64,000 bases of DNA, from contig CBDCKT010000003.1 in NCBI GenBank assembly GCA_965218415.1, forward strand, positions 1,896,904 through 1,960,903, in the 5' to 3' direction. The notes under the pieces are model-generated. The model was given only the letters and a program-made list of their open reading frames with translations. It made no database searches and was not told the origin of the DNA. Below are positions 3,375 to 53,700 of this stretch, in pieces (positions within the stretch are counted from its first letter, which is position 1; each line of letters starts with the position of its first letter). The position numbers and the translations under genes are program-made. This stretch comes from Variovorax sp. (GTDB lineage Bacteria; Pseudomonadota; Gammaproteobacteria; Burkholderiales; Burkholderiaceae_C).

Positions 3375-4637
3375 TCAGCCGGCGTGCTCTGCGCCGTGCG
3401 GCGCGGAAGGCACTGCCTCGCCAGCGCTGCGAAACGGACTGCGGCCCTCGAGATGCTCCATGTAGTTCTCGATCCCCGCGCCCTCGCGCTCCAGAAAGCG
3501 CTCGATCGCATCGGCGAACGCCGGATGCGCGAGCCAGTGGGCGCTGGTGGTTTTGACCGGCATCAGCGCGCGCGCCATCTTGTGCTCGCCTTGCGCGCCG
3601 CCCTCGAAGCGCGTGATGCCGTGCGCGATGCACCACTCGAGCGGCTGGTAGTAGCAGGCTTCGAAGTGCAGGCAGTCGACGCGCTCGAGTGCGCCCCAGT
3701 AGCGGCCATACGCGACGCCTTGCGCGGAATTTGAATCAAAAGTGCTTGAAACGTCCGATGGGCCTGCGCTGACAGCTATCAAACTCGTAGCAATCGGATG
3801 ACCGTCGCGCTCGGCGATGAACATGAGCCAGGCTTCGGGCATGGTCTGCGCGGTGCGGCGGAAGAAGTCGCGCGTGAGGTAGGGCGCGTTGCCGTGCTCG
3901 CGGTAGGTGCGCGCATAGCAGCGGTAGAAAAAATCCCAGTCGGCGTCCGTGATGTCGGTGCCGAGAGACCAGCGAAAAGTAACGCCCGCGTCACGCACTT
4001 TGCGCCGCTCTTGCCTGATTTTTTTGCGTTTGTCGTGCGCGAGGCTGGCGAGGAAAGCGTCGAAGTCGGCAAACCGCTGCGGCGCGGCATGGCCGGGCAC
4101 CGTCGGCGCGATGTTCTGCCAGTGAAACTGCACTGTGTGCCGCAGCATCAATCCGGCGTCTTCGCAGGCGGCAATGTCCTCGTCGGCTGCGAACAGCAAG
4201 TGCAGCGACGACAGTTTTTCCTGCTCGCACCATTGAACGAGACCATTGACCAGCAACACCCGGCTTTCGGCGTCGCGCGCAAGCAGCCGTGCGCCCGGCA
4301 CCGGCGTGAACGGCACTGCGACCAGCGCCTTCGGGTAGTAGGCGAGACCGTGCTGCTCGTAGGCGTTGGCCCACGCCCAGTCGAACACGTACTCGCCGGA
4401 AGAATGCGACTTCAGATAGACCGGGCAGGCCGCTTCGATTGACTCGCCACGGTGCAAGGTGACGAACGCGGCTTGCCAGCCGCGCTCGGGCGTTGCGCTG
4501 CCGCTTTCGTGCAGCGCGCTCAGGTATTCGTGCCGCATGAACGGCGACGGGGATGACTGCAGCGCGAGCAGGTCGTTCCACGCGGCCTCGTCGATTTCCA
4601 ACGGCGAGTGGTGAATGCGCAAAAAAAGATCGGTCAA
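3375..4637 (-). CDS. FemAB-like GNAT family protein (DUF482 type), carries an in-frame repeat copy
   Basis: HSSGEYVFDWAWA, GRYWG, CLHFEACYYQ and FEGGAQGEHK motifs; start placed at TTG 4637 (inferred). Confidence 0.85.
   Translation of the reverse strand: MTDLFLRIHHSPLEIDEAAWNDLLALQSSPSPFMRHEYLSALHESGSATPERGWQAAFVTLHRGESIEAACPVYLKSHSSGEYVFDWAWANAYEQHGLAYYPKALVAVPFTPVPGARLLARDAESRVLLVNGLVQWCEQEKLSSLHLLFAADEDIAACEDAGLMLRHTVQFHWQNIAPTVPGHAAPQRFADFDAFLASLAHDKRKKIRQERRKVRDAGVTFRWSLGTDITDADWDFFYRCYARTYREHGNAPYLTRDFFRRTAQTMPEAWLMFIAERDGHPIATSLIAVSAGPSDVSSTFDSNSAQGVAYGRYWGALERVDCLHFEACYYQPLEWCIAHGITRFEGGAQGEHKMARALMPVKTTSAHWLAHPAFADAIERFLEREGAGIENYMEHLEGRSPFRSAGEAVPSAPHGAEHAG
3728..3791 (+). repeat. 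64-bp dispersed repeat, copy 1 (inside the GNAT CDS, antisense)
   Basis: AATTTGAATCAAAAGTGCTTGAAACGTCCGATGGGCCTGCGCTGACAGCTATCAAACTCGTAGC. Confidence 0.85.
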
Positions 4638-4795
4638 ATGCGGAATCGGGCGGTACGGCAGGAGGCGACAGTGTAGGAACGATTGTGAAACCCTGCGCCG
4701 CGCGGGCCGTGCGCCGAAGCTTCGATGCCGCCGCGGCACGCCGAATAAGATCGTGCTTCGCTTTTGCTCCTGACACTGCCTCGACCCGCTTGCCC

Positions 4796-6858
<2,063 letters not shown>

Positions 6859-6886
6859 GGCCGCCTGCGTCAACCAATTCCAGGCT

Positions 6887-7507
6887 TCAGATTTTTTCGG
6901 CCAGCGCTCCGGGTGGATGCGCATCGCCGCCGCGCAAAACCAGCCACTGAAGCAGCGCTTGTGCATCGTCGTCGACACGCACCAGCCCGCGCTGCCATTG
7001 GCCCATGAATCCGGCTTCGATGCTCTGGTCGATCAAGACTAGCAGCGGGTCGTAGTAGCCGGCCATGTTCAGGATGCCGATCGGCTTGTCGTGATAGCCG
7101 AGCTGGCGCCAGGTCCAGACTTCGAACAGCTCCTCGAAAGTGCCGATGCCACCCGGCAGTGCCAGAAACGCATCGGCGCGCTCGCCCATCATCGCCTTGC
7201 GCTGATGCATGTTGTCGACCACGTGCAGTTCGTCGCATCGGGCGTTGGCGACTTCCTTGTCGACCAGTGCCTTCGGAATGATGCCGACCACCCGCCCGCC
7301 TGCTGCCCGCGTGGCCTCGGCGACCGCGCCCATGAGCCCGGTGCGGCCGCCGCCATAGATCAATTGGCCGCCGCGTTCGCCGATCCAGCGACCGACGGTC
7401 TGCGCCGCTTCGGTGTGGAGCACATCCCGACCGGGTCGCGAACCGCAATAAACACAGAGCGAAAACGCCGGGCTTGGCGCTGTTGCTTCAGATTTCGGGT
7501 CGGTCAT
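6887..7507 (-). CDS. LOG-family (TIGR00730-type) Rossmann-fold protein
   Basis: CVYCGSR, YGGGRTGLMG and PGGIGTFEE motifs; start at ATG 7507. Confidence 0.92.
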   Translation of the reverse strand: MTDPKSEATAPSPAFSLCVYCGSRPGRDVLHTEAAQTVGRWIGERGGQLIYGGGRTGLMGAVAEATRAAGGRVVGIIPKALVDKEVANARCDELHVVDNMHQRKAMMGERADAFLALPGGIGTFEELFEVWTWRQLGYHDKPIGILNMAGYYDPLLVLIDQSIEAGFMGQWQRGLVRVDDDAQALLQWLVLRGGDAHPPGALAEKI

Positions 7508-7517
7508 CGTGCGGCGC

Positions 7518-7946
7518 TCACGAAAGAAAGCGCTGCCAGAGCGCCGCCAGCCAAATTCCAGCGCACAAGAGCAGCGACAGCAGAACCGCGGCGCTGCCCA
7601 TGTCCTTGGCGCGCTTGGACAGCGCATGCCATTCGGGCCCGACCCGATCGATCGCCGCTTCGACCGCGGTGTTGAGCAACTCGACGATGAGCACCAGCAG
7701 CGCGCTGCCCGCGAGTACCGCGACCTCGACCCAGCCGCGGCCGACCCAGAGCGATAAGGGCAGCAACACGATCGCGCCGATCGCCTCCTGGCGGAAGGCG
7801 GTTTCGCCGAGGCCGGCGCGCAACCCGTCCAGCGAGATCAGCGTGGCATGCCAGACGCGGTGCAGGCCGGTTCGTCCCGCCTGTGGATTGGCAGGCGCAG
7901 GTGCGTTCGAATGGTCGGTGGATTCGCCGCGCTTGGAGTGATTCAT
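7518..7946 (-). CDS. dgkA: Diacylglycerol kinase (DgkA family)
   Basis: ETAFRQE, VELLNTAVEAAIDR and KRAKDMGSAAV motifs. Confidence 0.93.
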   Translation of the reverse strand: MNHSKRGESTDHSNAPAPANPQAGRTGLHRVWHATLISLDGLRAGLGETAFRQEAIGAIVLLPLSLWVGRGWVEVAVLAGSALLVLIVELLNTAVEAAIDRVGPEWHALSKRAKDMGSAAVLLSLLLCAGIWLAALWQRFLS

Positions 7947-7975
7947 CCATTTCGTCGCATCTTGGCGCTTCGGCT

Positions 7976-8563
7976 TCAAACGCCGGCCGGCGAACGCTTG
8001 TCCGATGGAATCAGACGCGTGCCGGCCCACACGTCGTGCCAGAACTGGCCTTGAGGCTGAAAGCGCGACAAAAGCGCCCAGACCGCGACCCAGCCGGACA
8101 CCAGCAGCGCGACTTCCGCGCCGGACAGCGCGAAAGGCGTCACCGCCGCCAGCGGCGGCAGAAACCAGACCCAGCAGAGCAGGTAGCGCCGCAGCGCGCG
8201 CCATTGGGTCAGCGGGCGGCCATTCGCATCGACGATTTGCACGCCCCAGGTTTTCATCGCCAAAGTTTGCCCCTTCGCCCAGAACCAGGTGAAGTAAACG
8301 CCGAACACGATGAAAACGAAGGCCTGGAGCAGATGCCGGCGTGCATCCATCGCATCGCGCATCTGGCCCAACGTGCTGAAAAGCCAACCCGCGACGAACA
8401 CCACCGCGAACAGCAGCATGCCTTCATAGAGCCAGGCGGCCATTCGACGCCCGAGCCCGGGCGCTATTAAATCGATAGCTGTCTGCGCACGTCCAGACTG
8501 GGCTAAAGGCCTTTTTGATTCATAAATCTCGGATTTTGGAGGCAGCGCGTCGTGATCGGACAT
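7976..8563 (-). CDS. RDD family membrane protein, N-terminus carries an in-frame repeat copy
   Basis: RRMAAWLYE, GQTLAMKTWG and WHDVWAGT RDD motifs. Confidence 0.88.
   Translation of the reverse strand: MSDHDALPPKSEIYESKRPLAQSGRAQTAIDLIAPGLGRRMAAWLYEGMLLFAVVFVAGWLFSTLGQMRDAMDARRHLLQAFVFIVFGVYFTWFWAKGQTLAMKTWGVQIVDANGRPLTQWRALRRYLLCWVWFLPPLAAVTPFALSGAEVALLVSGWVAVWALLSRFQPQGQFWHDVWAGTRLIPSDKRSPAGV
8463..8526 (-). repeat. 64-bp dispersed repeat, copy 3 (in frame in the RDD N-terminus)
   Basis: Reverse complement TTTATGAATCAAAAAGGCCTTTAGCCCAGTCTGGACGTGCGCAGACAGCTATCGATTTAATAGC, encoding YESKRPLAQSGRAQTAIDLIA. Confidence 0.9.
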
Positions 8564-8573
8564 CGCTGCGACT

Positions 8574-9350
8574 TTATCGCGGGTCGGGCGTCGACCGGGT
8601 CGGAATGTCGCGCGGACTGGCGTCGAGCTCGGCCGGTTCACGCTCGCCCCGAAGCGCCGGCGGCTGCGCGCGCTGAGCCGCGAGCGGCGGCCCGAGCTGG
8701 ATGCGCGCGCTGTGCGCACCGCGCCCCGATGCCGGCGGCGGCAACTGGATTTGCTTTTGGGCCGACGCCGGCCGGGTCGCGACTGCGGCGCCCCGTGGCG
8801 TTTGTGCTGCCTTGGCCGCCAGGTCGTTCTTCTGCTTTTCCGACAGCGCCTGGTAGGCCGCCCACTTTTCCTTGCGATCCTGCGGCGAAAGGCGCTTGAC
8901 CTCGGCGAAGTTGAGTCGGGCCTGCGCGCGCTGCCGCGGACTCAAGGCAGCCCAGTCGGTCATGCGGCTGTGCAGCATCGCCTGCTCCGGGGCCGGCAAG
9001 TCGGCGAAGTCACGCGACAACGCGAGCCACTTGCGCTTTTGCGGGTCGCTCAGCAGATTCCAGTGGGCGGCGAGCGGCTGCAAAGCGGCTTTCTGGGCAT
9101 CGGTCAGCTCCGACCACAGCGGGCCGGAACGCGCCGTTTTCGATGGCGCTGCATTGGCCTTCGGGCTGGTTGGCGCAGCCGCTGCCGCGCTGGCGGGCCT
9201 GGCTCCGCTCACTGCGGTTGCCGCAGCAGGCGTGGCCGGCGCGGCAGCCGGCTGCGCGTTGGCCGAGAACGCGATCAAAACGCAGCCCGGCAAAGCGGCC
9301 AGTACCAGCCGACGAAAGTGTCGAGGTTCCGTCGTCAGGCGCACAGGCAT
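8574..9350 (-). CDS. DUF3106-like exported protein
   Basis: Signal peptide, Ala/Pro-rich linker, W-rich helical repeats (WSELTDAQKAALQPLAAHW, WAALSPRQR); third gene of the ECF operon. Confidence 0.8.
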   Translation of the reverse strand: MPVRLTTEPRHFRRLVLAALPGCVLIAFSANAQPAAAPATPAAATAVSGARPASAAAAAPTSPKANAAPSKTARSGPLWSELTDAQKAALQPLAAHWNLLSDPQKRKWLALSRDFADLPAPEQAMLHSRMTDWAALSPRQRAQARLNFAEVKRLSPQDRKEKWAAYQALSEKQKNDLAAKAAQTPRGAAVATRPASAQKQIQLPPPASGRGAHSARIQLGPPLAAQRAQPPALRGEREPAELDASPRDIPTRSTPDPR

Positions 9351-9367
9351 CGGCGCGTCCGGGTCGG

Positions 9368-9814
9368 TCAGCGCGCGGAGCCGCTGGTCTTCAGGAACTG
9401 CGCGAAACCGGGATCGGTGAAGGCGGCCGGAGGCAGATCGCCGGTGAGCAGCGCGATATCGACTTCAGCCGCTTCGCTTGCGCGGTTGTCGTCCTGCAAG
9501 GTGTCGATCGCGATCAGGCCCGCCACCAGCGCGACCAGCGGAAGCGCAAAGCCGATCCGCGTCCACCAACCCGAAAACCCGCCGCTCTGCGACGCACCGG
9601 CAGCCGAGGACACGACCGCCGCGGAAGCAGGCCGCAACGCCGAACGCGGGGAGGGCGCCAGCTGGCGTCGCGCGAGCGCCTGGACCCGGGCCGCGCGAAG
9701 CCTTTCAGCCACGTCGTGCGGAAGATCGTCGGCGCCATTCGACAGGCGCGCTGCAATCAGGCGGCCGAAGCGTTCTTCCGAGGTCGCCTGAGCCGGCGAA
9801 ACTGTGATGTTCAT
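9368..9814 (-). CDS. DUF3619-like single-TM protein, probable anti-sigma factor
   Basis: LPHDVAERLRAARVQAL; one TM; DIALLTGDLPPAAFTDPGF; ATGA overlap with the sigma gene. Confidence 0.8.
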   Translation of the reverse strand: MNITVSPAQATSEERFGRLIAARLSNGADDLPHDVAERLRAARVQALARRQLAPSPRSALRPASAAVVSSAAGASQSGGFSGWWTRIGFALPLVALVAGLIAIDTLQDDNRASEAAEVDIALLTGDLPPAAFTDPGFAQFLKTSGSAR

Positions 9815-10377: not shown

Positions 10378-10526
10378 GCGTGAGGTGCGGCGGGTCTCGG
10401 CGCGAAAAACGCGCAACCGCAGGGCGCGTGGTGCGGCGCGAGCGGGGCGGATCGCTTCTGTTCTTCTGTGGAGGCGCGGATTATGGCATCGGGCATCCCG
10501 CTTCAACGCCCATCGGGTTCGGCTTG

Positions 10527-10562
10527 CACGCGCATCACGCGCATCACGCGCATCACGCGCAG
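10527..10562. repeat. 9-bp tandem repeat (cacgcgcat)x4 between the divergent sigma and ilvI genes
   Basis: cacgcgcat cacgcgcat cacgcgcat cacgcgcag. Confidence 0.9.
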
Positions 10563-12565: not shown

Positions 12566-12574
12566 TACGAACAG

Positions 12575-12686
12575 CCGAACGCGAAGGACGCGAAAACTAC
12601 GCGAAGGACGCGAAAAACCGAACCGAAAAATCGATTTGGTATTCCTTTTGCGCTCTTCGCGAAACCTTCGCGTCCTTCGCGTTCGG
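12575..12686. repeat. Long REP-like imperfect inverted repeat, family 2 copy A
   Basis: Perfect 20-bp arms ccgaacgcgaaggacgcgaa (12575-12594) and ttcgcgtccttcgcgttcgg (12667-12686), with inner repeated acgcgaaggacgcgaa units. Confidence 0.9.
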
Positions 12687-12727
12687 ATGTCCGATCCCGA
12701 ATTTCAAATCCCAAAGACAAATCTATT

Positions 12728-12770
12728 GCCCGCCAAGCCCGCGCATCACCGTGCGCGGGGGAGGGCGGCG
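12728..12770 (+). promoter_or_regulatory. GC-rich hairpin just upstream of the ilvH RBS, candidate cis-regulatory RNA
   Basis: cccgcgca-tcaccg-tgcgcggg stem with outer ccgcc/ggcgg pairing; AGAGG RBS follows. Confidence 0.45.
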
Positions 12771-12790
12771 AAAAGAGGCGTCGCATCACC

Positions 12791-13291: not shown

Positions 13292-14335
<1,044 letters not shown>

Positions 14336-14352
14336 TGACGCTCGATCGTCAT

Positions 14353-14416
14353 GCTCCTGAATTGATAGCTTTCTGCGCACGACTGGCGGGCGCTGGAGCA
14401 CTATTTTATGCATGAC
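14353..14416 (-). repeat. 64-bp dispersed repeat, copy 4 (ilvC-pssA junction)
   Basis: Reverse complement ...ATAAAATAGTGCTCCAGCGCCCGCCAGTCGTGCGCAGAAAGCTATCAATTCAGGAGC. Confidence 0.8.
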
Positions 14417-23275: not shown

Positions 23276-23339
23276 AATTTAAGAGAAAAGTCGCTGGAAC
23301 GTCCGGTGGACGTTCGCAGACAGCTATGTAAATGATAGC
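23276..23339 (+). repeat. 64-bp dispersed repeat, copy 5 (2 nt after the coxL-like stop)
   Basis: AATTTAAGAGAAAAGTCGCTGGAACGTCCGGTGGACGTTCGCAGACAGCTATGTAAATGATAGC. Confidence 0.9.
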
Positions 23340-23438
23340 AACCGTCTGCTGCAGACCTCACGGCAGCCGAGCGCTGCTTCGTCGGCGGATGCGTTTTCTT
23401 GTCGCCGCCGGCCTCGAAGAGCCCACGTGACGCGACGT

Positions 23439-24343: not shown

Positions 24344-24407
24344 GATTTAAGAGAAAAAGGTCCGAAACGCCCGATTGACGTGCGCTGACAGCTATTTATT
24401 TGATAGT
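24344..24407 (+). repeat. 64-bp dispersed repeat, copy 6
   Basis: GATTTAAGAGAAAAAGGTCCGAAACGCCCGATTGACGTGCGCTGACAGCTATTTATTTGATAGT. Confidence 0.9.
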
Positions 24408-24427
24408 AAACGCCCGGCCGGCGCCCG

Positions 24428-26312: not shown

Positions 26313-26376
26313 GTTTCAAATAAAAAGTGTTTGAAACCTTTACTGGACGTGCGCAAGCAGCTATCCCTTTAATAGC
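26313..26376 (+). repeat. 64-bp dispersed repeat, copy 7 (left flank of the MAA cluster)
   Basis: GTTTCAAATAAAAAGTGTTTGAAACCTTTACTGGACGTGCGCAAGCAGCTATCCCTTTAATAGC. Confidence 0.9.
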
Positions 26377-26603
26377 ATTACCCGTGTTGCGATCGATGGC
26401 TTTCGGCTCGACGACGGTCCGTGCGAAAGCTGCGCCCATGTGCCGGACGGCTCGCGATGCCGGTCTTGCGCCCCGATGCAAACGCGCCACTGCAAGCCGA
26501 TAGCAGCATCGACTTCCGCGAATTGCGGCATGCGCCTACCTGCGCCGAGCAAGTGACTCCCGATAGTCCGGGATGGTTTTAAACATGGAACGCCACACCG
26601 CCA

Positions 26604-33366: not shown

Positions 33367-33430
33367 ATTTTGAAAGAATAGTGCTTGAAACGCCCGTCAG
33401 TCTTGCGCAGACAGCTATAACTTTAATAGC
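33367..33430 (+). repeat. 64-bp dispersed repeat, copy 8 (right flank of the MAA cluster)
   Basis: ATTTTGAAAGAATAGTGCTTGAAACGCCCGTCAGTCTTGCGCAGACAGCTATAACTTTAATAGC. Confidence 0.9.
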
Positions 33431-33479
33431 GTTTCAATGGAGAAACAGAGCAGGGCGCAAGCTCGGTCCTCGCCATTTT

Positions 33480-40205: not shown

Positions 40206-40424
40206 GCGTGCAGCTCCTCCGGTTGGTCGTTCGGAGGGTAAGTCGCAACGGTTGGGTCAATCGTCGCGGCGGTGACAAGCGTTATGGAGGCAAAGGGCCA
40301 ACTCGGCCGACGCCACAAGCGGTCGGCTGAAGCGATGCGTCAGTCGGTCAGGTCGATCAGCGCGTAGCGACGAGACAAGATGTTCAAATCCGCAGCGCAA
40401 TCCCCACGAGCAATACGGGCAACC

Positions 40425-40488
40425 GCTATGAAATAAATAGCTGTTTGCGCACGTCCAGTATGGCTTAGAGCCCGATTCGACTCAAAAC
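40425..40488 (-). repeat. 64-bp dispersed repeat, copy 9
   Basis: Reverse complement ...GGGCTCTAAGCCATACTGGACGTGCGCAAACAGCTATTTATTTCATAGC. Confidence 0.85.
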
Positions 40489-42551: not shown

Positions 42552-44717
42552 CTAAAGAGCGGCGCTCAGTCCCAGCCTCAGCGTGCGCGCCGAACCGGGA
42601 AACAAGTACACATGGCTGAACTGGGTCGGTGACTCTTTCCAGTAGCGGCGGTTCAAGACGTTCTCCACGGCCAAAGTCCAGCGCAGCGATGTGCCTTGCC
42701 ATTTCGTGTCGTAGCGCAGCGCGGTGTCGAAACGCGTCCACGACGGCAATTCGATCGATCCATCGGCCAGAACGTTGCGCTTGCCTTCGTGCGAGAGCTG
42801 GCCTTCGATTTCGAGCCCCGGCACGCTCGCGAGCCGGTACGCGGCTTGCGCGCGAACCACCGCGCGGGGCACGTTGGTCGGCCGCTCGCCGTTGACGGCC
42901 GGGTCGGCGATGCTGCTTTCGCGCCTGGCGTCGAGCCAAGTGAGGCCGCTTGCGAGCCGCCATGGGCCTCGGCGCCATTGGCCGCTGGCTTCGACGCCTC
43001 GATGCCGCGCCGCGCCGTCGAAGCCGATCGTGCAGGCGCCTGCTGCGGCGTCGCAGGTGTCGAGGTTGGTGGCGGGGCGGCGAATGTCGAAGTAGGCGAC
43101 CCGCCAATCGAATGCCGCTTGCGTTCCCTTGAGCCCTATTTCCCACTGGCGCGATTCGAGCGCCGGCAGTGCCTGGCCGGCGTTGCTGTAGATCGGCAGG
43201 TTCGGCACCAACTGCGATTCGACCCCTTTGCCCCAGCTCGCATAGGCCAGCAAATCGGGTCGCAATGCATAGCTTGCAGCCACCCAGGGTGTCGTGAAGG
43301 TCTGGCTGTAGGCGGTCGGGTTAGCGCCGTCGGTGCCGATGCTGGTTCGTGAAAGTCGGGTGTAGCGCACGCCGACCCAGGTCGTGAGCTGCTCGTTCCA
43401 ATGGATCGCGTCGTGGACCGAGAACTCGGTCGAGCGCTCGTTGCGATTCGTGTTCGGCGTGGTCAGGCCCGGATCGGGCGGCACGATCGCGGTACCGACA
43501 ATGTTGCCGCTGCCGACATAGTTGAACGCCGAATCATCGAAGCGATTGCGCACCTGGCTGCGGGTCAGGCCGAAAGCGAGTTCGTGCCGCACGCTGCCGG
43601 TCATCGCGCTGCCTTTGAGGCTCAGGTTGCCGGCAGTTTCGACGCGGCGTTCGTTCTCGCTGCGGAAATCGTAGAAGTCGAAAGTGCCGTCCGAGCAATA
43701 GCGGTCGAAGTTGCCTTCGGCGCCGCAGCCGAAAGGGAATGCGAGGCGGTCGTCGGTTTTGAGGCGTTGCCGGCCTACTTGCGCGCTCCAGCGCCAATCG
43801 CGCGCAAGCGCCTGGGTGAAGCGCAGGGTGCCGGTCAGCGCATCGAAGCGCGACGGCTGCGACCAGGGCTGATTATTCAGGTTGAGGTTGGGGTTCGGCA
43901 CCGCCGGCAACACGTTGCCGAGCAGGCTGAAGCCGGCCTGGCTCGGCTGCGTCTTGTGGCTTTTCTCGATCTCGAATTCGACCAGCGAATCGCGCGTGAC
44001 GCGCCAGTCGGCCGCGAGTGAAAACAGGTTGCGGTTGCCGTCGATGTTGTGCGTCTGCGGCTTCAGGTTCTCGAACGCGGCGTTGAAGCGATAGCCGAAC
44101 TGCCGGTCTGCACCGAATCGGCCGCCGAGATCGACCGCGCCGAGCAGACTGCCACGGCTCGAATATTCGGTGCGGACTTCACGCAAATCCTTTTCGGTCG
44201 GCCGTTTGACGACGTAGTTGACCAGCCCGCCCGGCGCGCTGGTGCCGGCCTGAATGCCGCTGGTGCCGCGCAGGATTTCGACCCGCTCCTTGTTGTCGAG
44301 CGGAATCGAGGTTTCGGCGCTGATCGGCAAGCCCTCGCGCTGGTAGTTGAAGCGGTTGTCGAGTACGAAGCCGCGCACCGTCAAGAAGTCCCAGTAGCCG
44401 GGCGAGTTGTACGAATCGGTGACCGACGCATCGAACTGCGTGAGGTCGGACAGGCGCCGCGCGCCGCTTGCCGCAATTTGGCCGCTGTCGATCACCGTCG
44501 CCGAGATCGGCACCGCCGAGAGCGGCATGTCGCCGAAACCGCTGACATTGGCAGCAGGCGGCGGCGCATCGGCACTGACCGTCACCGCAGGCAAGGTGCG
44601 TTCCTGTGCATGCACCGACACCGCATTTGCTATGAAAATTAGAGCTGTCAGCGCACGCAGGACGGGCGTTTCAGCCCCTTTTTTCTTGAAAACCGGGTTG
44701 TACGAAGAAGTTGCCAT
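42552..44717 (-). CDS. TonB-dependent receptor under TPP riboswitch control (thiamine/precursor uptake candidate)
   Basis: TonB box-like PAVTVSA; plug motifs VRGF and ERVEILRG; C-terminal aromatic residue of a beta-barrel; start at ATG 44717. Confidence 0.9.
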   Translation of the reverse strand: MATSSYNPVFKKKGAETPVLRALTALIFIANAVSVHAQERTLPAVTVSADAPPPAANVSGFGDMPLSAVPISATVIDSGQIAASGARRLSDLTQFDASVTDSYNSPGYWDFLTVRGFVLDNRFNYQREGLPISAETSIPLDNKERVEILRGTSGIQAGTSAPGGLVNYVVKRPTEKDLREVRTEYSSRGSLLGAVDLGGRFGADRQFGYRFNAAFENLKPQTHNIDGNRNLFSLAADWRVTRDSLVEFEIEKSHKTQPSQAGFSLLGNVLPAVPNPNLNLNNQPWSQPSRFDALTGTLRFTQALARDWRWSAQVGRQRLKTDDRLAFPFGCGAEGNFDRYCSDGTFDFYDFRSENERRVETAGNLSLKGSAMTGSVRHELAFGLTRSQVRNRFDDSAFNYVGSGNIVGTAIVPPDPGLTTPNTNRNERSTEFSVHDAIHWNEQLTTWVGVRYTRLSRTSIGTDGANPTAYSQTFTTPWVAASYALRPDLLAYASWGKGVESQLVPNLPIYSNAGQALPALESRQWEIGLKGTQAAFDWRVAYFDIRRPATNLDTCDAAAGACTIGFDGAARHRGVEASGQWRRGPWRLASGLTWLDARRESSIADPAVNGERPTNVPRAVVRAQAAYRLASVPGLEIEGQLSHEGKRNVLADGSIELPSWTRFDTALRYDTKWQGTSLRWTLAVENVLNRRYWKESPTQFSHVYLFPGSARTLRLGLSAAL
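44629..44692 (-). repeat. 64-bp dispersed repeat, copy 10 (in frame, forms the signal peptide n/h region)
   Basis: Reverse complement TTTTCAAGAAAAAAGGGGCTGAAACGCCCGTCCTGCGTGCGCTGACAGCTCTAATTTTCATAGC, encoding FKKKGAETPVLRALTALIFIA. Confidence 0.85.
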
Positions 44718-44792
44718 GACGTTCTTTCGACGCAATGGCAGGTCGGCTTGCGATGCCCGAATGGCTGGCGAGATGGCAGCCGGGCTTTTTTG

Positions 44793-44890
44793 CATGCTTC
44801 CCTGCGCGAGGATTACCTCAATCAGGTTCAAAGGGACTTTCTCAGCCGTTGCGCAACCGGTTTGATTGCGCGTCGGCACCCCTAGCGATG
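44793..44890 (-). ncRNA. TPP riboswitch 1 (upstream of the TonB receptor)
   Basis: Reverse complement: ctaggggtgcc...GGCTGAGAaagtCCCTTTGAACCTGAttgaGGTAATcctcGCGcAGGGAAGC. Confidence 0.95.
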
Positions 44891-44922
44891 TCTGCCGACT
44901 GTGCTCGGCGGACCGTTGAATT

Positions 44923-46700: not shown

Positions 46701-46711
46701 GTTGGAGGAAT

Positions 46712-46909
46712 TTAACCGCCGGTGACAGGCCGAATGACCTCGACCCTGTCGTCGGGCGCGAGGGTCCGGGTGGCATGGGCCGAGCGCGGAACGAAGTCCT
46801 TGTTGACCGCCACCGCGAACGGCGGCGTGGCTTTCAGCGCCTCCAACGCATCGGCGACGCAGGCGTCTTCGGGAAGTTCGTGAGATGTGTCGTTGATCAG
46901 GATGCGCAT
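46712..46909 (-). CDS. thiS: Sulfur carrier protein
   Basis: 65 aa; AVAVN..FVPR; C-terminal GG. Confidence 0.95.
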   Translation of the reverse strand: MRILINDTSHELPEDACVADALEALKATPPFAVAVNKDFVPRSAHATRTLAPDDRVEVIRPVTGG

Positions 46910-48021
46910 CGTGTTTCGTCCCCGTTAAGTTGCAGCCCCAGGCGTTCGGCGAGCGCCGAATGACCGGACCGCAGGATTTCAATTGTTATGTCGAGCAGCG
47001 CAGGCGCGACCAAAAAACCGTGGCGGTACAGGCCGTTGATCTGCAGCACCCGTTTGGCAGGCTGGCGGATCGCGGGCAAGTTGTCGGGCAGCGTCGGGCG
47101 GCAATGGGCTGCCATTTCGACGATCCGGGCCTCGGCGAAGCCACTGTGCACTGCGTAGGCGGCGCTCAAAAGTTCGAGCGCCGAGCGCACGCTTATCGGC
47201 GACATGTCGTCCGACTCGATCTCGGTCGCGCCGATCACGAACAGATGGTCAGGTTTGGGCGCGATGTAGAGCGGATAGCGCGGATGGACGAGTCGCGTCG
47301 GCCGCGTGAGCGGGACTTCGGGCGCATGGACCCGGATCACCTCACCGCGCACGCCACGAAGTGCCGGCCATTCACGCCTCGCGCCGAGTCCGCGGCAATC
47401 GATGACCCAGTCGGGCTCGCCGCGTTGGCCCGGTTGGCCGGGCCGGAAGTCCTCGAGCGCCCGCGCCGTCTGCCAATGCAAGGTGACGCGCGGATCGGCC
47501 TCGAGCGTCGCGAGCAGTGCGCCCAGCAGGGCGCGGTTGTCGAGTTGACCTTCATCGCGCAAGAAGATGCCTTGCGTGAACCGGTGCCCCAAGGACGGCT
47601 CGAGTGCTTCGATTTCATCGGCCTGCAACCTCTCCGGGCCCGGCAATTCGGGGATCTGCTCGGCAGTGCGCGACAGCACCTGGACGAGCCGCGTGGCTTC
47701 GGCGGCGTCTTGCCGATGCCACAGCATCAATGTGCCTTCGCGCTGAAAAAACACCGGCAACGCGAGCGTCTGCAAAAGCGCTGGCCAGCGCTCGATCGCG
47801 TGAATGCCCATCCGAACCACGGACAGCGGCGCAACGGCTGACTCGGCCAGCGGCGCGAGCATGGCTGCGGCGATTCGCGCCGCGGCGGTGCGCCCGTCGG
47901 ACTCGCCTGCGTCGAACAAGTCCACCCGGCAGTCGGCGTGCGCGAGGCTGACCGCCAACAGTCGGCCCATCAGGCCGGCGCCGAGAATCGCGACCGACTC
48001 GAGCGGCAAGGCAGCGGGCAT
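46897..48021 (-). CDS. thiO: Glycine oxidase ThiO (FAD-dependent)
   Basis: GAGLMG, AAAMLAP, IDCRGLG, VRGE, RPTLPDNLP and NGLYRHG motifs; upstream of thiS. Confidence 0.9.
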   Translation of the reverse strand: MPAALPLESVAILGAGLMGRLLAVSLAHADCRVDLFDAGESDGRTAAARIAAAMLAPLAESAVAPLSVVRMGIHAIERWPALLQTLALPVFFQREGTLMLWHRQDAAEATRLVQVLSRTAEQIPELPGPERLQADEIEALEPSLGHRFTQGIFLRDEGQLDNRALLGALLATLEADPRVTLHWQTARALEDFRPGQPGQRGEPDWVIDCRGLGARREWPALRGVRGEVIRVHAPEVPLTRPTRLVHPRYPLYIAPKPDHLFVIGATEIESDDMSPISVRSALELLSAAYAVHSGFAEARIVEMAAHCRPTLPDNLPAIRQPAKRVLQINGLYRHGFLVAPALLDITIEILRSGHSALAERLGLQLNGDETRCAS

Positions 48022-48071
48022 CTTCAGTCGCCCCTCGCTTCGAAGGTCGCGGCTCGCCGATACTCGGCCCG

Positions 48072-48938
48072 ATGATTCATCCGCTCTCCACGCCATCCAA
48101 TACGCCGACGCGATACGCGCGCGTGCTCACGATCGCCGGCTCCGACAGTGGCGGCGGCGCTGGCATCCAGGCGGACCTCAAGACTTTCGCAGCGCTCGGC
48201 TGCTACGGCATGAGCGCGATCACCGCACTTACAGCGCAAAACACGGTAGGCGTATCGGCAATTCATGCAGTGCCGCCGGCGTTTCTCGAAGCCCAGATCC
48301 GCGCGGTGGTCGAAGACATCGGCGTCGATGCGGTCAAGCTCGGCATGCTGCATGCGCCCGAAGTCGTCGAAGTGGTGGCGCGGGCGATCGACCGCTACCG
48401 GCTGCCGCATGTGGTGCTCGATCCGGTGATGGTCGCAACCAGCGGCGACCGGTTGATTGCCGAGGAAACGGTGCAGTTGCTGGTGCGCGAACTGTTTCCG
48501 CGCGCTGTGCTCGTCACGCCGAATCTCGACGAAGCGCAGCTTTTGATCGGCCATCCAATCGATGGGGTCCAAGCCTTCGAAAGCGCGGCCGAAGAATTGC
48601 TGGCGCTGGGCGCGCATGCAGTTTTGCTCAAGGGTGGGCATTTGCCCGGCGATGAGGTCGTCGATCTGCTGGCATCGAGCGACGGTAGCCGAAAGCGGCT
48701 GTCGTCGCGCCGCATCGAAAGCCGTAACCTGCATGGCACAGGCTGCACGCTGTCGTCCGCCATCGCGGCGTTCCTCGCGCTCGGCCATCCGCTCGTCGAT
48801 TCGGTCGAGCGCGCGCGGGCTTACGTGGTCGGCGCGCTGCAGGCCGGCGCGGATGTGAAGGTGGGCGAGGGCCACGGTCCGCTCAACCACGGCTTTGCGC
48901 CAGTGCCGATGCACCGGTTGCCGCCGATGGCCGGCTGA
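48072..48938 (+). CDS. thiD: HMP/HMP-P kinase
   Basis: IAGSDSGGGAGIQADLK, VLDPVM, TPNLDEA, LLKGGH and HGTGCTLSSAIA motifs. Confidence 0.95.
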   Translation: MIHPLSTPSNTPTRYARVLTIAGSDSGGGAGIQADLKTFAALGCYGMSAITALTAQNTVGVSAIHAVPPAFLEAQIRAVVEDIGVDAVKLGMLHAPEVVEVVARAIDRYRLPHVVLDPVMVATSGDRLIAEETVQLLVRELFPRAVLVTPNLDEAQLLIGHPIDGVQAFESAAEELLALGAHAVLLKGGHLPGDEVVDLLASSDGSRKRLSSRRIESRNLHGTGCTLSSAIAAFLALGHPLVDSVERARAYVVGALQAGADVKVGEGHGPLNHGFAPVPMHRLPPMAG

Positions 48939-50235
48939 GCCAGGCGGCGACGAAGGTCAGTGCCAGGGTCGGCAATGCCGAACCCCATTGCGGCGCCCAT
49001 TTGGCACACCCGTGATAGACCGCGATGCCGGCAATCCAGATCGAAGCCGCCCGCCAGTCGACGCGACGTGCGCCGACCGCTATCGCTTCAGCGCCGGTGC
49101 CGTAAAGGCCGAGACGCCCGAGTATCACGCCGTACAACGGCACGAACACCGAACTGAGCAGCAGCAGAAAAGGTTCGAGCGAATGCATCGGCAGCACTAG
49201 CGCAAAGGCGATGCACAGGGCGGCGAGCAAAAGGCCCCAGCGCCTGACGCTCCAGCGCGGCAGCAGGCTGTGGGTCGACACCGCGCCTGAATAGACATCA
49301 CCGTAGGCGTTGTCGAGTTCGTCGATGAGAATCAGACCCAGCGCCACCAGACCGCCTTGCGCGAGCAGCAAGGCTGTCACCAGCCCGGCACCCGGCTCGG
49401 CCGTGCTCACGACCATCACGCCGAGCGCATAGCACCAGATGTTGGCGAGCGCATAGCCGAGCCAGGTGCCGCTGAACGCACTGCCGAGGCCGCCTTTGGC
49501 ACTGGCGCGCTTTCCGTGACGCGCATAGTCGGCAACTAGCGGCAGCCAGGACACCGGCATCGCGATCACCAGATCGAGCGCGCCGAAGACACCCATGCTG
49601 CCGTCGCCGGGCCGCGACCAGAACGCATCGAAGCCATTGGCCGACAAGCGTGCCGCAAACTGCCAAGTCAGCCAGATCAGCGAGAGGATCACGAGCGGCA
49701 AACCGAAACGGCTCACGAACCTGCGCACCAGCTTGACCATCGATCCCGCGAGCAGCGCCAGCAGCACCGCGCCCCAAAGCAGCGTGAGGAGCCCGGTGGC
49801 GAGCGGCGTTCCGAGTTGCGTGCCGGTCGCCCCGAGCGCTTTGCCGGCGATCGCCTGCGTGCCCTCGCGCATGATCACGATCTCGAAGGTGGTCCAGCCG
49901 ACCAGCTGAACGATGTTGAGCAGCACCGGCAATCGCGCGAAGGCGCTGCCGTAGGTTGCATGCATCAATCCGGCGCTCGCGAGCCCGGTTTCACATCCCA
50001 GTCGGGCCGTCCATGCCAGCAGCCCGGCGCCCAGGCACGAGCCGATGACGATCGCAATGGTGGCGTCTCGCGTACCGACGGCTGGCACCAGATAGGCGCC
50101 GACCTGCATCACCAGAAGCCCAACGCCCAGGCTGAACCAGAGCGCAGCATGGTCGTGCCATCGGAAGACGCGCGCGTTGGCCGGCATCGGCGTCAACGCC
50201 TCGTTGGTGCCGGGAGAGGTTTCGATGTTTGCCAT
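48883..50235 (-). CDS. cytX: NCS1/CytX-like hydroxymethylpyrimidine permease
   Basis: WFSLGVGLLVMQVG, QLVGWTTFE, MPVSWLPLVADYAR; about 12 TM; TPP riboswitch upstream. Confidence 0.82.
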   Translation of the reverse strand: MANIETSPGTNEALTPMPANARVFRWHDHAALWFSLGVGLLVMQVGAYLVPAVGTRDATIAIVIGSCLGAGLLAWTARLGCETGLASAGLMHATYGSAFARLPVLLNIVQLVGWTTFEIVIMREGTQAIAGKALGATGTQLGTPLATGLLTLLWGAVLLALLAGSMVKLVRRFVSRFGLPLVILSLIWLTWQFAARLSANGFDAFWSRPGDGSMGVFGALDLVIAMPVSWLPLVADYARHGKRASAKGGLGSAFSGTWLGYALANIWCYALGVMVVSTAEPGAGLVTALLLAQGGLVALGLILIDELDNAYGDVYSGAVSTHSLLPRWSVRRWGLLLAALCIAFALVLPMHSLEPFLLLLSSVFVPLYGVILGRLGLYGTGAEAIAVGARRVDWRAASIWIAGIAVYHGCAKWAPQWGSALPTLALTFVAAWLSRPSAATGASALAQSRG

Positions 50236-50319
50236 TCGTTTGCTCCAAAGCAAAGTTCTGGCAGGTGGGCAACAATTCAGTGGCTGAAATTCAACGAGAG
50301 AGTCGTCGCGGCCATCGAA

Positions 50320-50416
50320 CCAGCTTCCCTGCGCGAGGATTACCTCAATCAGGTTCAAAGGGACTTTCTCAGTCGATTCCCACAGCCGAAGCCAGCGAAT
50401 GACACCCCTAGCGATT
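50320..50416 (-). ncRNA. TPP riboswitch 2 (upstream of cytX)
   Basis: Reverse complement: ctaggggtgtc...GACTGAGAaagtCCCTTTGAACCTGAttgaGGTAATcctcGCGcAGGGAAGC. Confidence 0.95.
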
Positions 50417-50538
50417 GGCTTCACACCGACACGGATCGGCGCAAAGCTTCACTATCTTACGCAAGCTATGAATGCTTTACACAAGTGCATCGTCGGGATG
50501 CCCGGTCAAGCGCATAGTTGGCTGCAACTGAGATCTGA

Positions 50539-50748
50539 ATGAAATACTCGTTGAGCACCCGCTATGTTGTCTGGACCGATATTGCGATCGCGGTCGTTGC
50601 AATCGTCTGGATCGCGCTGAGCCAGCCAGCCCCCCCGCCGCCTGAAACCGATACGCACGCGGCTCAGCCGACAACAGTGTCAACCGGCCCGGCCAAAGCG
50701 CCGGCCGCTGGCGCCCGGGCCGACATCATCGCCAGGACGGGCGATTAG
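50539..50748 (+). CDS. Small hypothetical membrane protein (69 aa)
   Basis: One hydrophobic segment followed by a Pro-rich tail; fills the gap between cytX and FNR. Confidence 0.5.
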   Translation: MKYSLSTRYVVWTDIAIAVVAIVWIALSQPAPPPPETDTHAAQPTTVSTGPAKAPAAGARADIIARTGD

Positions 50749-51811
50749 CTGCAACGGGCGCCACCCCGAGCAGCTCGTGCAGGCGCGTACTCGTGGTCGT
50801 GTATTGCAGCTGCGCCGGCCGATCGGGATGCACGATTGTGCGGGCGCCCCAGGCCGCGAGCGTGGCTTCATGAAAGCCGCAGACGATCAGCTTTTTCTTG
50901 CCCGGATAGGTGTTGATGTCGCCGACCGCGAACACGCCCGGCTGGCGCGTTTCGAAGCGCTCGGTGTCGACCGGCACCTGCTTGCGCTCGAGTTGCAGAC
51001 CCCAATCCGCAATCGGGCCGAGGCGCGGTGAGATGCCCAGCCATGCGAGCACCGTGTCGGCCTGAAGCTTTGTTGCGCCGCCATCAGGCGCGAGGACTTC
51101 GAGCCCGCGCAGGGCGCCGTCGTCGCCGCTGCAACCAGCAATCTGGCCGATCAGAAGCCGCAGTGCGCCTGCGTCGCACTGCTTGCGCATTCTGGCGACC
51201 AGCGCGTCTTCGGCCTGAAAGGCATCCCGACGGTGCAGGACGGTGATGGATGCCGGTTTCTCTTGGCCGGGGCTTCGTGTCGCCAGCGCCGTGGCTGCGT
51301 CGAGCACCGCGTCGTTGCCGCCGACGAGCACAACATGCCGATCTTCCAGACCATCGAGCTGCTCGGGGTGATATCGGACCTGCGTCCCTTCGTACCGGGC
51401 GAGTCCTTCCAGCGCGATCCGTTTCGGCATGAACGCCCCCACACCGCCCGCGATAATCGCGACCTTCGTGAGGAACCCGGTGCCGGCGGATGTGCCGAAG
51501 CGCATTCGCCCGTCGTCTTCGCGAGCCATCGTCGTCACTTGCTGGCCCAGATGCAGGGCAGGGTGAAAGGGCGCGACTTGATTCAGCAATGCATCCGTAA
51601 GGCCTTGCCCTGTGGTTGCGGGCAAGCCGGGAATGTCGTAGATCGGCTTGTCGCCGTACAGCTGCGCGCATTGGCCGCCCGCATGCGGCAGTGCATCGAC
51701 CACCTGACAGGAAATTTCGAGCAGTCCGAGCTGAAACACCTGGAACAGCCCGACCGGACCGGCGCCGATGACGAGCGCGTCGGTTTCGATGGTCGCAGCG
51801 GACGCGCTCAG
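50726..51811 (-). CDS. TrxB-like ferredoxin--NADP+ reductase
   Basis: [37 protein letters not shown] and [10 protein letters not shown] motifs; no CxxC; probable CTG start overlapping the fdx stop. Confidence 0.88.
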
Positions 51812-52137
51812 CGCACCAGCTCCGACAGCTTGTTCGGCACGTCTTTCCATTCGTCGGCGTCGGGCGGCGCGGGCTTGCGCCGCGTGATGGTTTTCCAGCC
51901 GTCGGCGTTCACGAGTTCGGCATTGAGCTTGATGAATTCCATCTGGTCGGCCGGCAGATCTTCTTCGGCATAGATCGCGTTGACCGGGCATTCGGGAATG
52001 CAGACCGCGCAATCGATGCATTCATCGGGATCGATGATCAGCATGTTCGGCCCCTCGCGAAAGCAATCGACCGGACAGACGTCGACGCAGTCAGTGTATT
52101 TGCAGCGGATACAGGATTCGGTGACGACGTGGGTCAT
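51808..52137 (-). CDS. fdxA: 7Fe ([3Fe-4S][4Fe-4S]) ferredoxin
   Basis: [26 protein letters not shown]...[12 protein letters not shown]. Confidence 0.93.
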
Positions 52138-52293
52138 GTTGTGAGGCGATGGTTCTGGCGCTCGTTGCAGCGCCGATTCCGGAAAAAGCAACTTATTTTA
52201 GAGGGGCTGCCGGCGCGTCGACGCGATGCGGTCTTTCCGAATGGCGCGCGTTCGATCAGCCTCGGCGCGCAACACGAGCCGCGCGACACATCC

Positions 52294-53700
52294 TCACCGT
52301 ACCAGCACCGCGCCGGCGGTTCGATGGCTCGCCGTGTCGACCAGCACCAGCGACCCGAGCGCGCGCGATTCGGCGAACGGTCGCACGACCAATGGCTGCT
52401 GCAATGCAAGAACCACAGTCCCGATCGCGTTGCGCTCGAGTTGCGAGGCCGGCGCCGATTGCAAGCTCGCGATATCGAGCCGGCCCGCGATCCGCGCGAC
52501 CTTCGCCTTCACCCAGCGGTGCCCTTGCAGTGCCCAGTAAACCCGGCCAACCACCAGCGGTTCATCGTCGAGCCAGGCGACGGTCGCATGCAGTTGGCGC
52601 ACCGGCGCGAAACAGTCGGGCGCGAGTAGCCAATCGCCACGCGAGATGTCGAGCTCCCGGTCGAGCACGATGCCGCCGCTTCGTCCCGCGCTCACGGTGT
52701 CGGGTCGGCGCACATGGTCGAGCACACGGGCCACGATCGCCGTCTGTCCACCCGGCATCACTGTGAGCGGCTGGCCCGGCGCGATCCGGCCCGAGGCAAC
52801 CCGGCCCCAGAAAATCCGGCGGCCTCCGGTCGTCTCGCTTGGTTCCGCTGCCTTCGACGCCGCTGCGTTAGACTCCGCTGCCGTCGATTCCGATGCTCTT
52901 TCGACCCACTGAACCGGAAATGCGCACGGCCCGCCGTTCTCCGCCGGCATCGACGGAAGTGCTTCGAGCAGCTCGAGCAGACACGGGCCCTGGTAGCCGC
53001 ACCAACCGGCCTTCCGGCGAGCCACGTTCCAGCCTTCGAGCGCAGACACCGGAATCGCGGCGGCAGCCGACATTGCGGCTGCGTCGGCGAATTCGGCGAG
53101 CGCCGAAGCGATCCGGCGGAACGCCTGCGCCGCGTCTGCGATCGCGTCGAGCTTGTTGACGACGAACACGATCGAGGGCACGCGCAGCAGCTGCGCGAGG
53201 AGCGCATGGCGACGGGTTTGCGGCAACAGTTCGCCGATGTCACGATCGCCGGCGCCGGCCCAAGCGAGCTTGGTCGCATCGACCAGCACCACGGCGGCGT
53301 CGGCGCTCGACGCTGCGGTGACCATGTTGCGCGTGTACTGCTCATGGCCCGGCGCATCGCCGATCACGAACTTGCGCCGCGCGGTCGCGAAGTAGCGGTA
53401 CGCGACATCGATCGTGATGCCTTGTTCGCGCTCGGCGGAAAGGCCGTCGGTGAGGCGCGCGAGGTCGATCGACTCGCCGTTGGCACCGCGTGTCGTCATG
53501 CCCGCAAGCTGGTCTTGCAGCACGGCCTTGCTGTCGACCAGCAGCCGACCGATCAAGGTGCTTTTGCCGTCGTCGACGCTGCCGCAGGTGATGAAACGCA
53601 GCGCTGCGGCGGTCTCGTGCTGTGCTCCAAAATTTGAAGAAAAAGTGGTCGAAACGCCCGTCCCACCTTCGCAGGCAGCTATCGAATCAATAGCATTCAT
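52294..53700 (-). CDS. cysN: Sulfate adenylyltransferase subunit 1 (GTPase)
   Basis: CGSVDDGKSTLIG, EREQGITID, DAPGHEQYTRNM, NKLD and SALEG motifs; ATGA overlap with cysD. Confidence 0.93.
   Translation of the reverse strand: MNAIDSIAACEGGTGVSTTFSSNFGAQHETAAALRFITCGSVDDGKSTLIGRLLVDSKAVLQDQLAGMTTRGANGESIDLARLTDGLSAEREQGITIDVAYRYFATARRKFVIGDAPGHEQYTRNMVTAASSADAAVVLVDATKLAWAGAGDRDIGELLPQTRRHALLAQLLRVPSIVFVVNKLDAIADAAQAFRRIASALAEFADAAAMSAAAAIPVSALEGWNVARRKAGWCGYQGPCLLELLEALPSMPAENGGPCAFPVQWVERASESTAAESNAAASKAAEPSETTGGRRIFWGRVASGRIAPGQPLTVMPGGQTAIVARVLDHVRRPDTVSAGRSGGIVLDRELDISRGDWLLAPDCFAPVRQLHATVAWLDDEPLVVGRVYWALQGHRWVKAKVARIAGRLDIASLQSAPASQLERNAIGTVVLALQQPLVVRPFAESRALGSLVLVDTASHRTAGAVLVR
52843..52896. 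repeat. Imperfect 15-bp tandem repeat (about 3.5 units) inside cysN
   Basis: ttccgctgccttcga / cgccgctgcgttaga / ctccgctgccgtcga / ttccgatgc, encoding S(T/N/K)AA(E/A) units. Confidence 0.7.
53631..53694 (+). repeat. 64-bp dispersed repeat, copy 11 (in frame, antisense, in the cysN N-terminus)
   Basis: AATTTGAAGAAAAAGTGGTCGAAACGCCCGTCCCACCTTCGCAGGCAGCTATCGAATCAATAGC; protein reads AIDSIAACEGGTGVSTTFSSNF. Confidence 0.9.

Follow-up and report, generated by a model that had tools for sequence, protein, structure and literature searches.

Does a short dispersed repeat that is read in frame within unrelated genes add a peptide to the host proteins, or does it take the place of residues that were already there? 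This question is raised by a 64,000-nucleotide stretch of the genome of a small-genome Variovorax sp. (GenBank assembly GCA_965218415.1, contig CBDCKT010000003.1, positions 1,896,904 to 1,960,903 of the forward strand; in the following, the window, numbered from its first letter), in which five genes hold an in-frame copy of one ~66-nt repeat. In a preliminary description of the window, these copies were taken for ~21-residue inserts at tolerant sites, by analogy with the Rickettsia palindromic elements (RPEs). In-frame selfish repeats within genes are known mainly from Rickettsia and have been regarded as an oddity of intracellular bacteria with reduced genomes. Here, we report that the repeat mostly takes the place of resident residues rather than adding a 21-residue insert, and that it is an RPE-like coding repeat of a replacement type.

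The repeat unit has the consensus TTTTAAGAGAAAAGTGGCTGAAACGCCCGCTGGACGTGCGCAGACAGCTATTAATTTAATAGCAAT, with sharp edges beyond which the flanks are random, and a GC content of 43-44% compared to 63.5% for the genome. Using an nhmmer profile that was iterated once, 835 copies were found genome-wide (4.19 Mb, three contigs), 13 of them in the window, at a density of ~1 per 5 kb on every replicon. The unit carries a dyad with a 5-bp stem, GCTAT-N7-ATAGC, which encodes A-I-x-x-I-A from either strand, as had been read from the window. Copies are ~76% identical to the consensus, a single pair reaches ≥95% identity, and divergence is star-like; some copies are partial, as in a TldD-like gene that holds repeat sequence in the 3' half only (~36 nt). 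Altogether, 141 copies (17%) lie wholly in genes, 162 extend across a gene end and 532 are intergenic, and ~4% of the genes in this genome hold a copy. In-gene copies score lower than intergenic ones (median 39 vs 49.5 bits). Because 122 of the 162 end-overlapping copies are at the 3' end of a gene (median overlap, 16 nt), many genes obtain their final codons and their stop from the repeat. The repeat is commoner between convergent genes and rarer between divergent genes, and genome-wide there is no bias with respect to replication strand or gene orientation. Spacing is more even than random, with nine gaps of <300 nt vs 48 expected and 76 gaps of <1 kb vs 150 expected, where the expectation is for the whole genome and not for a null confined to intergenic space; in part, the even spacing arises because short spacers hold one copy each.

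All five peptides quoted from the window are present exactly (Table 1), and all five coding sites match the one repeat profile at 48-60 bits (E ~1e-12 to 1e-16), with three sense copies sharing one reading frame and two antisense copies another, as previously described. The consensus is free of stops only in sense +1, which gives a 21-residue peptide, and in antisense 0, which gives a 22-residue peptide, with stops in the other four of the six frames. These two frames account for 114 of the 141 in-gene copies (74 in sense +1 and 40 in antisense 0), and the proteome search proposed for the encoded motif, run as AQ[TSAP]A[IMT]..[IV]A, returned 41 matches vs 0.4 expected. Open frames are also common among intergenic copies: 60% of these are open in sense and 69% in antisense. 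It is, therefore, the family consensus that makes copies open, and the earlier suggestion that coding copies are selected to stay open adds little to what a stop-free consensus gives trivially. Similarly, the sense-frame stops ascribed to the intergenic copies of the window were found in those at 23277, 24345 and 26314 and are absent from those at 33368, 40422, 58175 and 61511. The signal that is added comes from a third frame: 57% of the intergenic copies are open in antisense +2, which encodes a Cys/Arg-rich peptide and is used by in-gene copies only 6 times vs ~38 expected (p = 4e-6). This avoidance of an open frame argues for a second filter, which acts on the encoded peptide; the peptide is shown to be benign for sense +1 and antisense 0, and not for antisense +2.

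The effect on protein length was determined for 33 deep in-frame copies by comparison with five repeat-free congeners. Composite queries, in which many in-gene copies were joined, each as the insert with 70-residue flanks, were used and net length was taken from the match coordinates, a procedure that was validated on real alignments. Orthologs that span the site were found for all 33 host genes at 45-86% identity. The median net gain is +4 residues, with 16 sites gaining ≤3, 14 gaining 4-17, two gaining 18-25 and one gaining >25 residues, and several sites gain exactly 0 relative to all five congeners. Net gain is a continuum from 0 to about +21 residues that is heaped at 0; a gain of about 21 residues is seen at only two to three of the 33 sites (C3:501695, +21; C2:1027343, +19), and a GluQ-RS-like host gains 19 residues relative to the shortest outgroups. 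At the sites with net change 0, orthologs of eight other families have the same protein length, and in the ComEC, RsmB-like, HSP70-like and TruB hosts Pfam profiles cross the repeat gap-free. Even in comparison with other families or Pfam, no gain is seen in the ComEC, RsmB-like, TldD-like, HSP70-like and M61 peptidase hosts. At the net-0 sites, DNA identity to the outgroups drops from 0.69 to 0.47; the drop has sharp edges and extends over exactly 66 nt, and positions at which the element is weakly conserved do not show higher identity. Across sites, net gain rises with the consensus-likeness of the copy (rho = 0.41, p = 0.014). The native sites of repeat-free relatives have no similarity to the element (matches ≤8 bits, none at the orthologous site). 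Given this and a native-versus-consensus identity of 0.36 with no terminal peak, homology-guided targeting was discarded. A genus-wide ancient insertion that decayed in the large genomes was ruled out as a general cause of zero gain at most sites by orthologs from other families, Pfam and the crystal-structure sequence of a Burkholderia thailandensis NadE (PDB 4F4H). In-gene copies persist only if the frame is stop-free, the peptide is benign and protein length is roughly preserved. As a consequence of these three filters, copies take the place of native loops, beta-hairpins, N-terminal tails and a signal-peptide core.

The hosts in the window span much of this range, and the ~21-residue inserts proposed for them come out as net changes of 0 in NadE, about 0 in the TonB-dependent receptor, about +5 in the RDD protein, about +10 in the FemAB-like protein and about +16 in CysN. 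NadE is collinear with its orthologs across the repeat, with a separate gain of 3 residues shortly downstream, and 4F4H aligns without a gap across the 21 residues. This site had been described as a tolerant linker between the glutaminase and synthetase parts; the segment overlaps the end of the CN_hydrolase domain and, in an AlphaFold2 model (predicted local distance difference test, pLDDT, 74; built from an alignment of mostly repeat-free orthologs), residues 247-267 are predicted to form a beta-hairpin at pLDDT 76-88. The nadE open reading frame (ORF) listed from 4553 has a spurious 5' extension (4553-4792), as both coding potential and the orthologs put the start near 4790-4796. In the TonB-dependent receptor, the copy is located where relatives encode the n/h-region of the signal peptide, and the net gain is about 17 nt in comparison with repeat-free relatives. 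The gap anticipated in repeat-free orthologs is, therefore, replaced by equally long, alignable segments in NadE and the TonB-dependent receptor. In the FemAB-like protein, which gains about 10 residues relative to repeat-free Variovorax, all orthologs have I-A-x-S-L-I-A as a native strand. The RDD tail has 34 residues compared to 29 in sister genomes, which lack this genome-specific copy. Its start, ATG 8563, lies upstream of the repeat and right after the upstream stop and is conserved in the sister genomes, and alignment to these genomes ruled out relatives starting at M(S/V)TPGLWRR. In CysN, the tail is 13 to 24 residues longer than in relatives, and the TGATG overlap of the cysD stop and the cysN start is conserved upstream of the repeat. 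Thus, for both N-terminal copies the true starts lie upstream, rather than downstream.

How old are these copies? Most Variovorax congeners are without the repeat, diverged versions occur in other small-genome Variovorax, and copies in the TonB-dependent receptor, FemAB-like, GluQ-RS-like and CysN genes are shared with sister genomes (Table 1), as is the intergenic copy at 14350, which has same-spacer orthologs in G052 (24 bits) and G136 (22 bits). A survey of the same family, which covered 401 genomes from 201 genera, gave strong full-length matches in 90 genomes and 56 genera, with the copy counts for these other genomes being lower bounds. No match was found in 16 genomes of other families or in plasmid records. 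In many organisms, among them Polaromonas spp., Curvibacter and several metagenome-assembled genomes, nadE has a sense match of 16-40 bits at the same codon position, the family-wide peptide there being SFKENLF.VQAQRAQAAIKLVA, and edge matches in these nadE loci are located where the FemAB-like copy would be. Two further observations concern the nadE locus: G052 has no nadE between the FemAB-like gene and the ortholog of the 6520-6858 gene (G052:C2:98000-117999 compared to 3375-6858 of the window), and several congeners have a different, longer NadE type. Intergenic copies are present or absent between species as whole elements. For shared copies, amino acid identity is 45% inside compared to 77% in the flanks, while at third codon positions, AT-rich though these are, identity inside matches or exceeds that of the flanks, and the dyad of the FemAB-like copy is written with synonymous AT-ending codons in four species. 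Third-position identity and the synonymous AT-ending dyad codons argue that conservation is at the level of DNA and not of the peptide. The comparison between genomes shows that the copies are ancient, have been inherited vertically over very long periods and are not recent insertions.

Based on these data, we suggest a model in which the element is an ancient, RPE-like ~66-nt repeat that is highly amplified in this small-genome Variovorax and whose in-gene survivors stand in for native segments; we would give this model an even chance of being correct. In this model, the element would have integrated in frame, and a comparable length of neighboring native coding sequence would have been lost, either in the same event or soon after by compensating deletions during genome reduction. 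The sequence of the element, chiefly the GCGCAGACAGCTAT...ATAGC core, would subsequently have been held by constraint at the DNA level. A candidate, and only that, for the mobilizer is a single Y1/HUH transposase-like gene outside the window (C3:909922-910633) that resembles the transposases associated with repetitive extragenic palindromic (REP) elements (REP-associated tyrosine transposases, RAYTs). Its product matches Y1_Tnp at 39 bits and NF047646 at 73 bits (cut-off 80) and has the motifs NHFHVL and YIDLNPVRA. A 25-bit repeat copy adjoins its stop codon, with the nearest upstream copy 2.7 kb away, and all 41 Variovorax genomes sampled, repeat-free ones included, have one copy of an ortholog (63-74% identity).

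The alternatives differ in how they deal with length and with the age of the copies. A simple RPE-like insertion, with a clean in-frame gain of 21-22 residues at a tolerant surface site and without loss, describes a minority of sites well, i.e. CysN with its +13 to +24 residues after a conserved start, the GluQ-RS-like host (+19), C3:501695 (+21) and C2:1027343 (+19), and Rickettsia offers an established case of in-frame RPE fusion (PMC10969869). As a general rule, which we consider quite improbable, it is already refuted by the gain of about 21 residues at only two to three sites and of ≤3 residues at 16 of the 33 sites, and by the hosts without gain (NadE, the TonB-dependent receptor and the ComEC, RsmB-like, TldD-like, HSP70-like and M61 peptidase hosts) when compared to other families, Pfam and a crystal structure. 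Alternatively, native sequence could have been pulled in situ, by molecular drive, i.e. biased gene conversion or biased uptake with recombination, and without insertion or change in length, toward a DNA motif that has a function, e.g. as a signal for uptake or a site bound by a protein. Many observations are consistent with such a process, including the family-wide conservation of the sequence, the over-dispersion of copies (the scarcity of gaps of <300 nt), the lack of orientation bias, target-site duplications (TSDs) and terminal inverted repeats (TIRs), star-like divergence with no recent copying, patch-like copies that depart from native sequence in the core alone (TldD-like, RsmB-like), the native residues kept under the FemAB-like dyad and the orthologous positions conserved across genera. 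However, a unit of 66 nt and ~50-60 bits is far above the known length of uptake signals, intergenic copies come and go between species as whole elements, identity to native sequence at the net-0 sites is uniformly low over the block, native sites in repeat-free relatives have no seed similarity, and many copies add residues; on balance, we regard this process as doubtful. We see a similarly modest prospect for a scenario in which the family-wide 66-nt element spreads or persists by templated replacement, overwriting resident sequence of equal length, structured segments of essential proteins included, with no insertion; if true, such spread would differ in mode from transposition, and the DNA of the element would be selected and the peptide merely tolerated.

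Two further explanations concern the origin and the reality of the coding copies. The repeat may derive from a gene fragment, e.g. the NadE hairpin, with the NadE copy as source or sibling, an idea compatible with the other explanations that would account for the protein-like open frame of the repeat. The Comamonadaceae NadE peptide given above is about half identical to the consensus peptide and matches at the DNA level at 16-40 bits, and Burkholderia NadE (4F4H) has the weakly similar FEEGNAIVEFDGARALPAAIAP. However, such an origin covers one site at most, the nadE of large-genome Variovorax has no DNA similarity to the element, the antisense frame is likewise open and is used 40 times, and the Burkholderia resemblance is weak; we, therefore, consider a coding origin rather remote. 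That the copies are an artifact, i.e. chance or compositional look-alikes or copies in unreal host ORFs, might be suspected from the lower scores of in-gene copies and from our use of our own gene calls. This suspicion hardly merits credence and is already refuted by the scores and E-values of the coding copies in the window, by spanning orthologs for 33 of the 33 hosts tested together with confirmed Pfam domains, and by orthologous copies found independently in other genomes.

Returning to the model of an ancient RPE-like repeat whose in-gene copies stand in for native segments, several points weigh against it. The 5' end of the element (AAATTTAAGAGAAAAGTGGC) and its reverse-complemented 3' end (ATTGCTATTAAATTAATAGC) have no inverted symmetry, i.e. 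there are no TIRs. No TSDs were detected at any boundary offset for k = 2-8 among 373 high-scoring copies (at most 9 matches vs ~3 expected), and junction microhomology above the codon level was not found at the net-0 sites; without these three features, there is no signature of integration. Because lengths are already equal among the sisters, insertion followed by an equal deletion had to be finished before the sisters split, and at several sites the net change is exactly 0 relative to every one of the five outgroups, which seems more precise than compensating deletions at random would give. The case of NadE shows that the "repeat-free" large-genome Variovorax may hold decayed copies, so that polarity is uncertain at some net-0 sites, although protein length is the same in orthologs from outside the family. 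The RAYT-like gene was rejected as a sufficient explanation because it is present in all sampled congeners, including the repeat-free ones. Finally, the genes were called with our own crude codon-usage caller (3,703 genes, 87% coding), and translation of the coding copies is inferred.

Table 1. Repeat copies and their host genes in the window, with shared copies in sister genomes
Feature	Coordinates	Strand	Quoted peptide	Support and remarks
Repeat copy in FemAB-like gene	3729..3794	+	3729-3794 (-)	52.5 bits; antisense reading IATSLIAVSAGPSDVSSTFDSN; shared with G136 (34 bits)
FemAB-like host gene (PF04339)	3375..4640	-		Pfam 453 bits; orthologs 73-78% identity
Repeat copy in NadE	5530..5595	+	5531-5593 (+)	54.3 bits; sense reading, 21 residues
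NadE host gene (glutamine-dependent NAD synthetase)	4793..6523	+		CN_hydrolase and NAD_synthase; ortholog alignment; start MPLQFAIAQ
Repeat copy in RDD protein N-terminal tail	8460..8525	-	8462-8524 (-)	48.5 bits; sense reading YESKRPLAQSGRAQTAIDLIA
RDD-family host gene (PF06271)	7976..8563	-		Pfam; sister-genome alignment
Intergenic copy between the 13319-14335 and 14408-15232 genes	14350..14415	-		40.1 bits
Intergenic copy, 3 nt past the stop of the 20968-23274 gene, upstream of a tRNA	23277..23342	+		53.2 bits
Intergenic copy	24345..24410	+		55.3 bits
Intergenic copy, divergent genes on either side	26314..26379	+		47.8 bits
Intergenic copy, convergent genes on either side	33368..33433	+		57.3 bits
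Intergenic copy	40422..40487	-		46.3 bits
Repeat copy at the N-terminus of TonB-dependent receptor	44626..44691	-	44628-44690 (-)	59.7 bits; sense reading FKKKGAETPVLRALTALIFIA; overlies signal-peptide n/h-region; shared with G136 (46 bits), G052 (21 bits) and G016 (19 bits)
TonB-dependent receptor host gene (Plug and beta-barrel), 3' of a thiamine pyrophosphate (TPP) riboswitch	42552..44717	-		Domain matches
Repeat copy from CysN codon 3	53632..53697	+	53629-53694 (-)	53.0 bits; antisense reading AIDSIAACEGGTGVSTTFSSNF; shared with G052 (28 bits)
CysN host gene (GTPase subunit of sulfate adenylyltransferase)	52294..53700	-		GTP_EFTU domain; start-codon conservation
Intergenic copy	58175..58240	+		44.2 bits
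Intergenic copy, divergent genes on either side	61511..61576	+		36.4 bits
Repeat copy in GluQ-RS-like gene				Shared with G016 (39 bits)

The window also contains two TPP riboswitches, at 44782-44893 (-; 60 bits) and 50309-50419 (-; 58 bits), which precede the repeat-bearing TonB-dependent receptor gene and the 48883-50235 gene, respectively. They share 60 nt at 93% identity (44796-44855 and 50323-50382), which suggests that they may represent a duplicated thiamine-regulated leader.

Should replacement be shown to have a mechanistic basis, it would add a new route of repeat spread. Copies that replace beta-hairpins, a signal-peptide core and domain-internal stretches amount to a natural experiment on the sequence swaps that a fold tolerates, and their persistence at the same codons across genera, together with conservation at the DNA level, points to a function or a maintenance mechanism. 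In practical terms, annotators and structure predictors will meet repeat-coded segments in many Comamonadaceae proteins.

How does the element compare with known systems? A structured RNA was ruled out: Rfam gave no match, either at the gathering threshold or at E ≤1, and there is no covariation beyond the invariant dyad and, hence, no covarying stem, and no orientation bias. Uptake signal sequences and DNA uptake sequences of the Pasteurellaceae and Neisseriaceae are family-wide motifs with even spacing, preferred coding frames and orthologous conservation. The element is similarly family-wide, evenly spaced and frame-preferring, and many of its coding copies cause no change in length; however, its conserved unit is about six times longer, whole elements are gained and lost in spacers, and coding sequence is replaced in blocks. 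The core GTGCGCAGAC presumably resembles the XerC arm of dif, while the half corresponding to the XerD arm does not match. A MITE (miniature inverted-repeat transposable element) was reportedly noted in the genome paper of Polaromonas sp. JS666 and may be the same as the 66-nt element, which in dozens of Comamonadaceae genera is apparently undescribed.

With the REP/RAYT system (PMC2817692), the element shares a high copy number, a mostly extragenic location, enrichment between convergent genes and a hairpin-forming dyad, and its genome has one Y1/HUH transposase-like gene that is conserved and inherited vertically, with a weak repeat copy at its stop, although congeners that lack the repeat have this gene as well. 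Unlike REPs, it is AT-rich and 66 nt long with a 5-bp stem, 17% of its copies are in genes, and it is never paired or clustered: genome-wide, there are no tandem arrays and no pairs or clusters of the BIME or REPIN type, and close pairs are depleted. Beta-proteobacterial repeat elements (BREs), described by Hot et al. (2011), are 75-91 bp long, have a GC content of 69%, which is above the genome average, and often form tandem arrays of variable number (PMC3110155). Like the element, BRE is a repeat of undocumented function in Comamonadaceae, including Polaromonas, and some of its copies lie entirely in coding sequence (PMC3110155). With 66 nt, 43% GC, i.e. below the genome average, and no tandem copies, identity of the element with BRE is ruled out. 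A second, GC-rich repeat of the CGCGAAGGACGCGAAA type, unrelated to the 66-nt element, is present in the window at 12568-12693, upstream of the ilvH leader RNA (12716-12783), with inverted arms that are 81% complementary and a 74%-identical copy at 54791-54860; this repeat might be BRE-like.

In Coxiella, QMITE1 and QMITE2 overlap genes in frame and alter the composition of the protein "without extending or truncating" it (PMC5896051). The 122 overlaps with gene 3' ends reported here, where the repeat supplies the last codons and the stop, are similar. By contrast, QMITEs are built as MITEs and act mainly on C-termini (PMC5896051), while the element lacks TIRs and TSDs and replaces internal, structured segments. 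RPEs (Ogata et al. 2000, as summarized in PMC10969869) are ~150 bp long, with 44 copies in R. conorii, about half of them in ORFs. Homology of the element to the Rickettsia RPE families is unlikely because length, taxon and consensus differ, as compared by description. Nevertheless, the feature that defines the RPE type, a dispersed repeat with a stop-free frame that lies in frame within real, unrelated genes, is found here in 141 in-gene copies, and in this respect the parallel drawn in the preliminary description holds. It does not extend to the extra peptide, as a gap relative to orthologs is not general and is seen in a minority of hosts, including CysN and the GluQ-RS-like protein. In-frame fusions of RPEs and MITEs are known, while internal replacement at this scale is not described in the literature surveyed. 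Like RPEs, the element is dispersed, partly palindromic and has a conserved open frame, it is found in frame within housekeeping genes that are unrelated and that it does not destroy, and it has no evident transposase or terminal-repeat signature. Unlike RPEs, it is 66 nt long with 835 copies, 141 of them in genes, and belongs to a betaproteobacterial family of the free-living type rather than to an obligate intracellular alphaproteobacterium; most of its coding copies replace native residues where RPEs supply extra peptides, and copies are kept at orthologous codons across genera.

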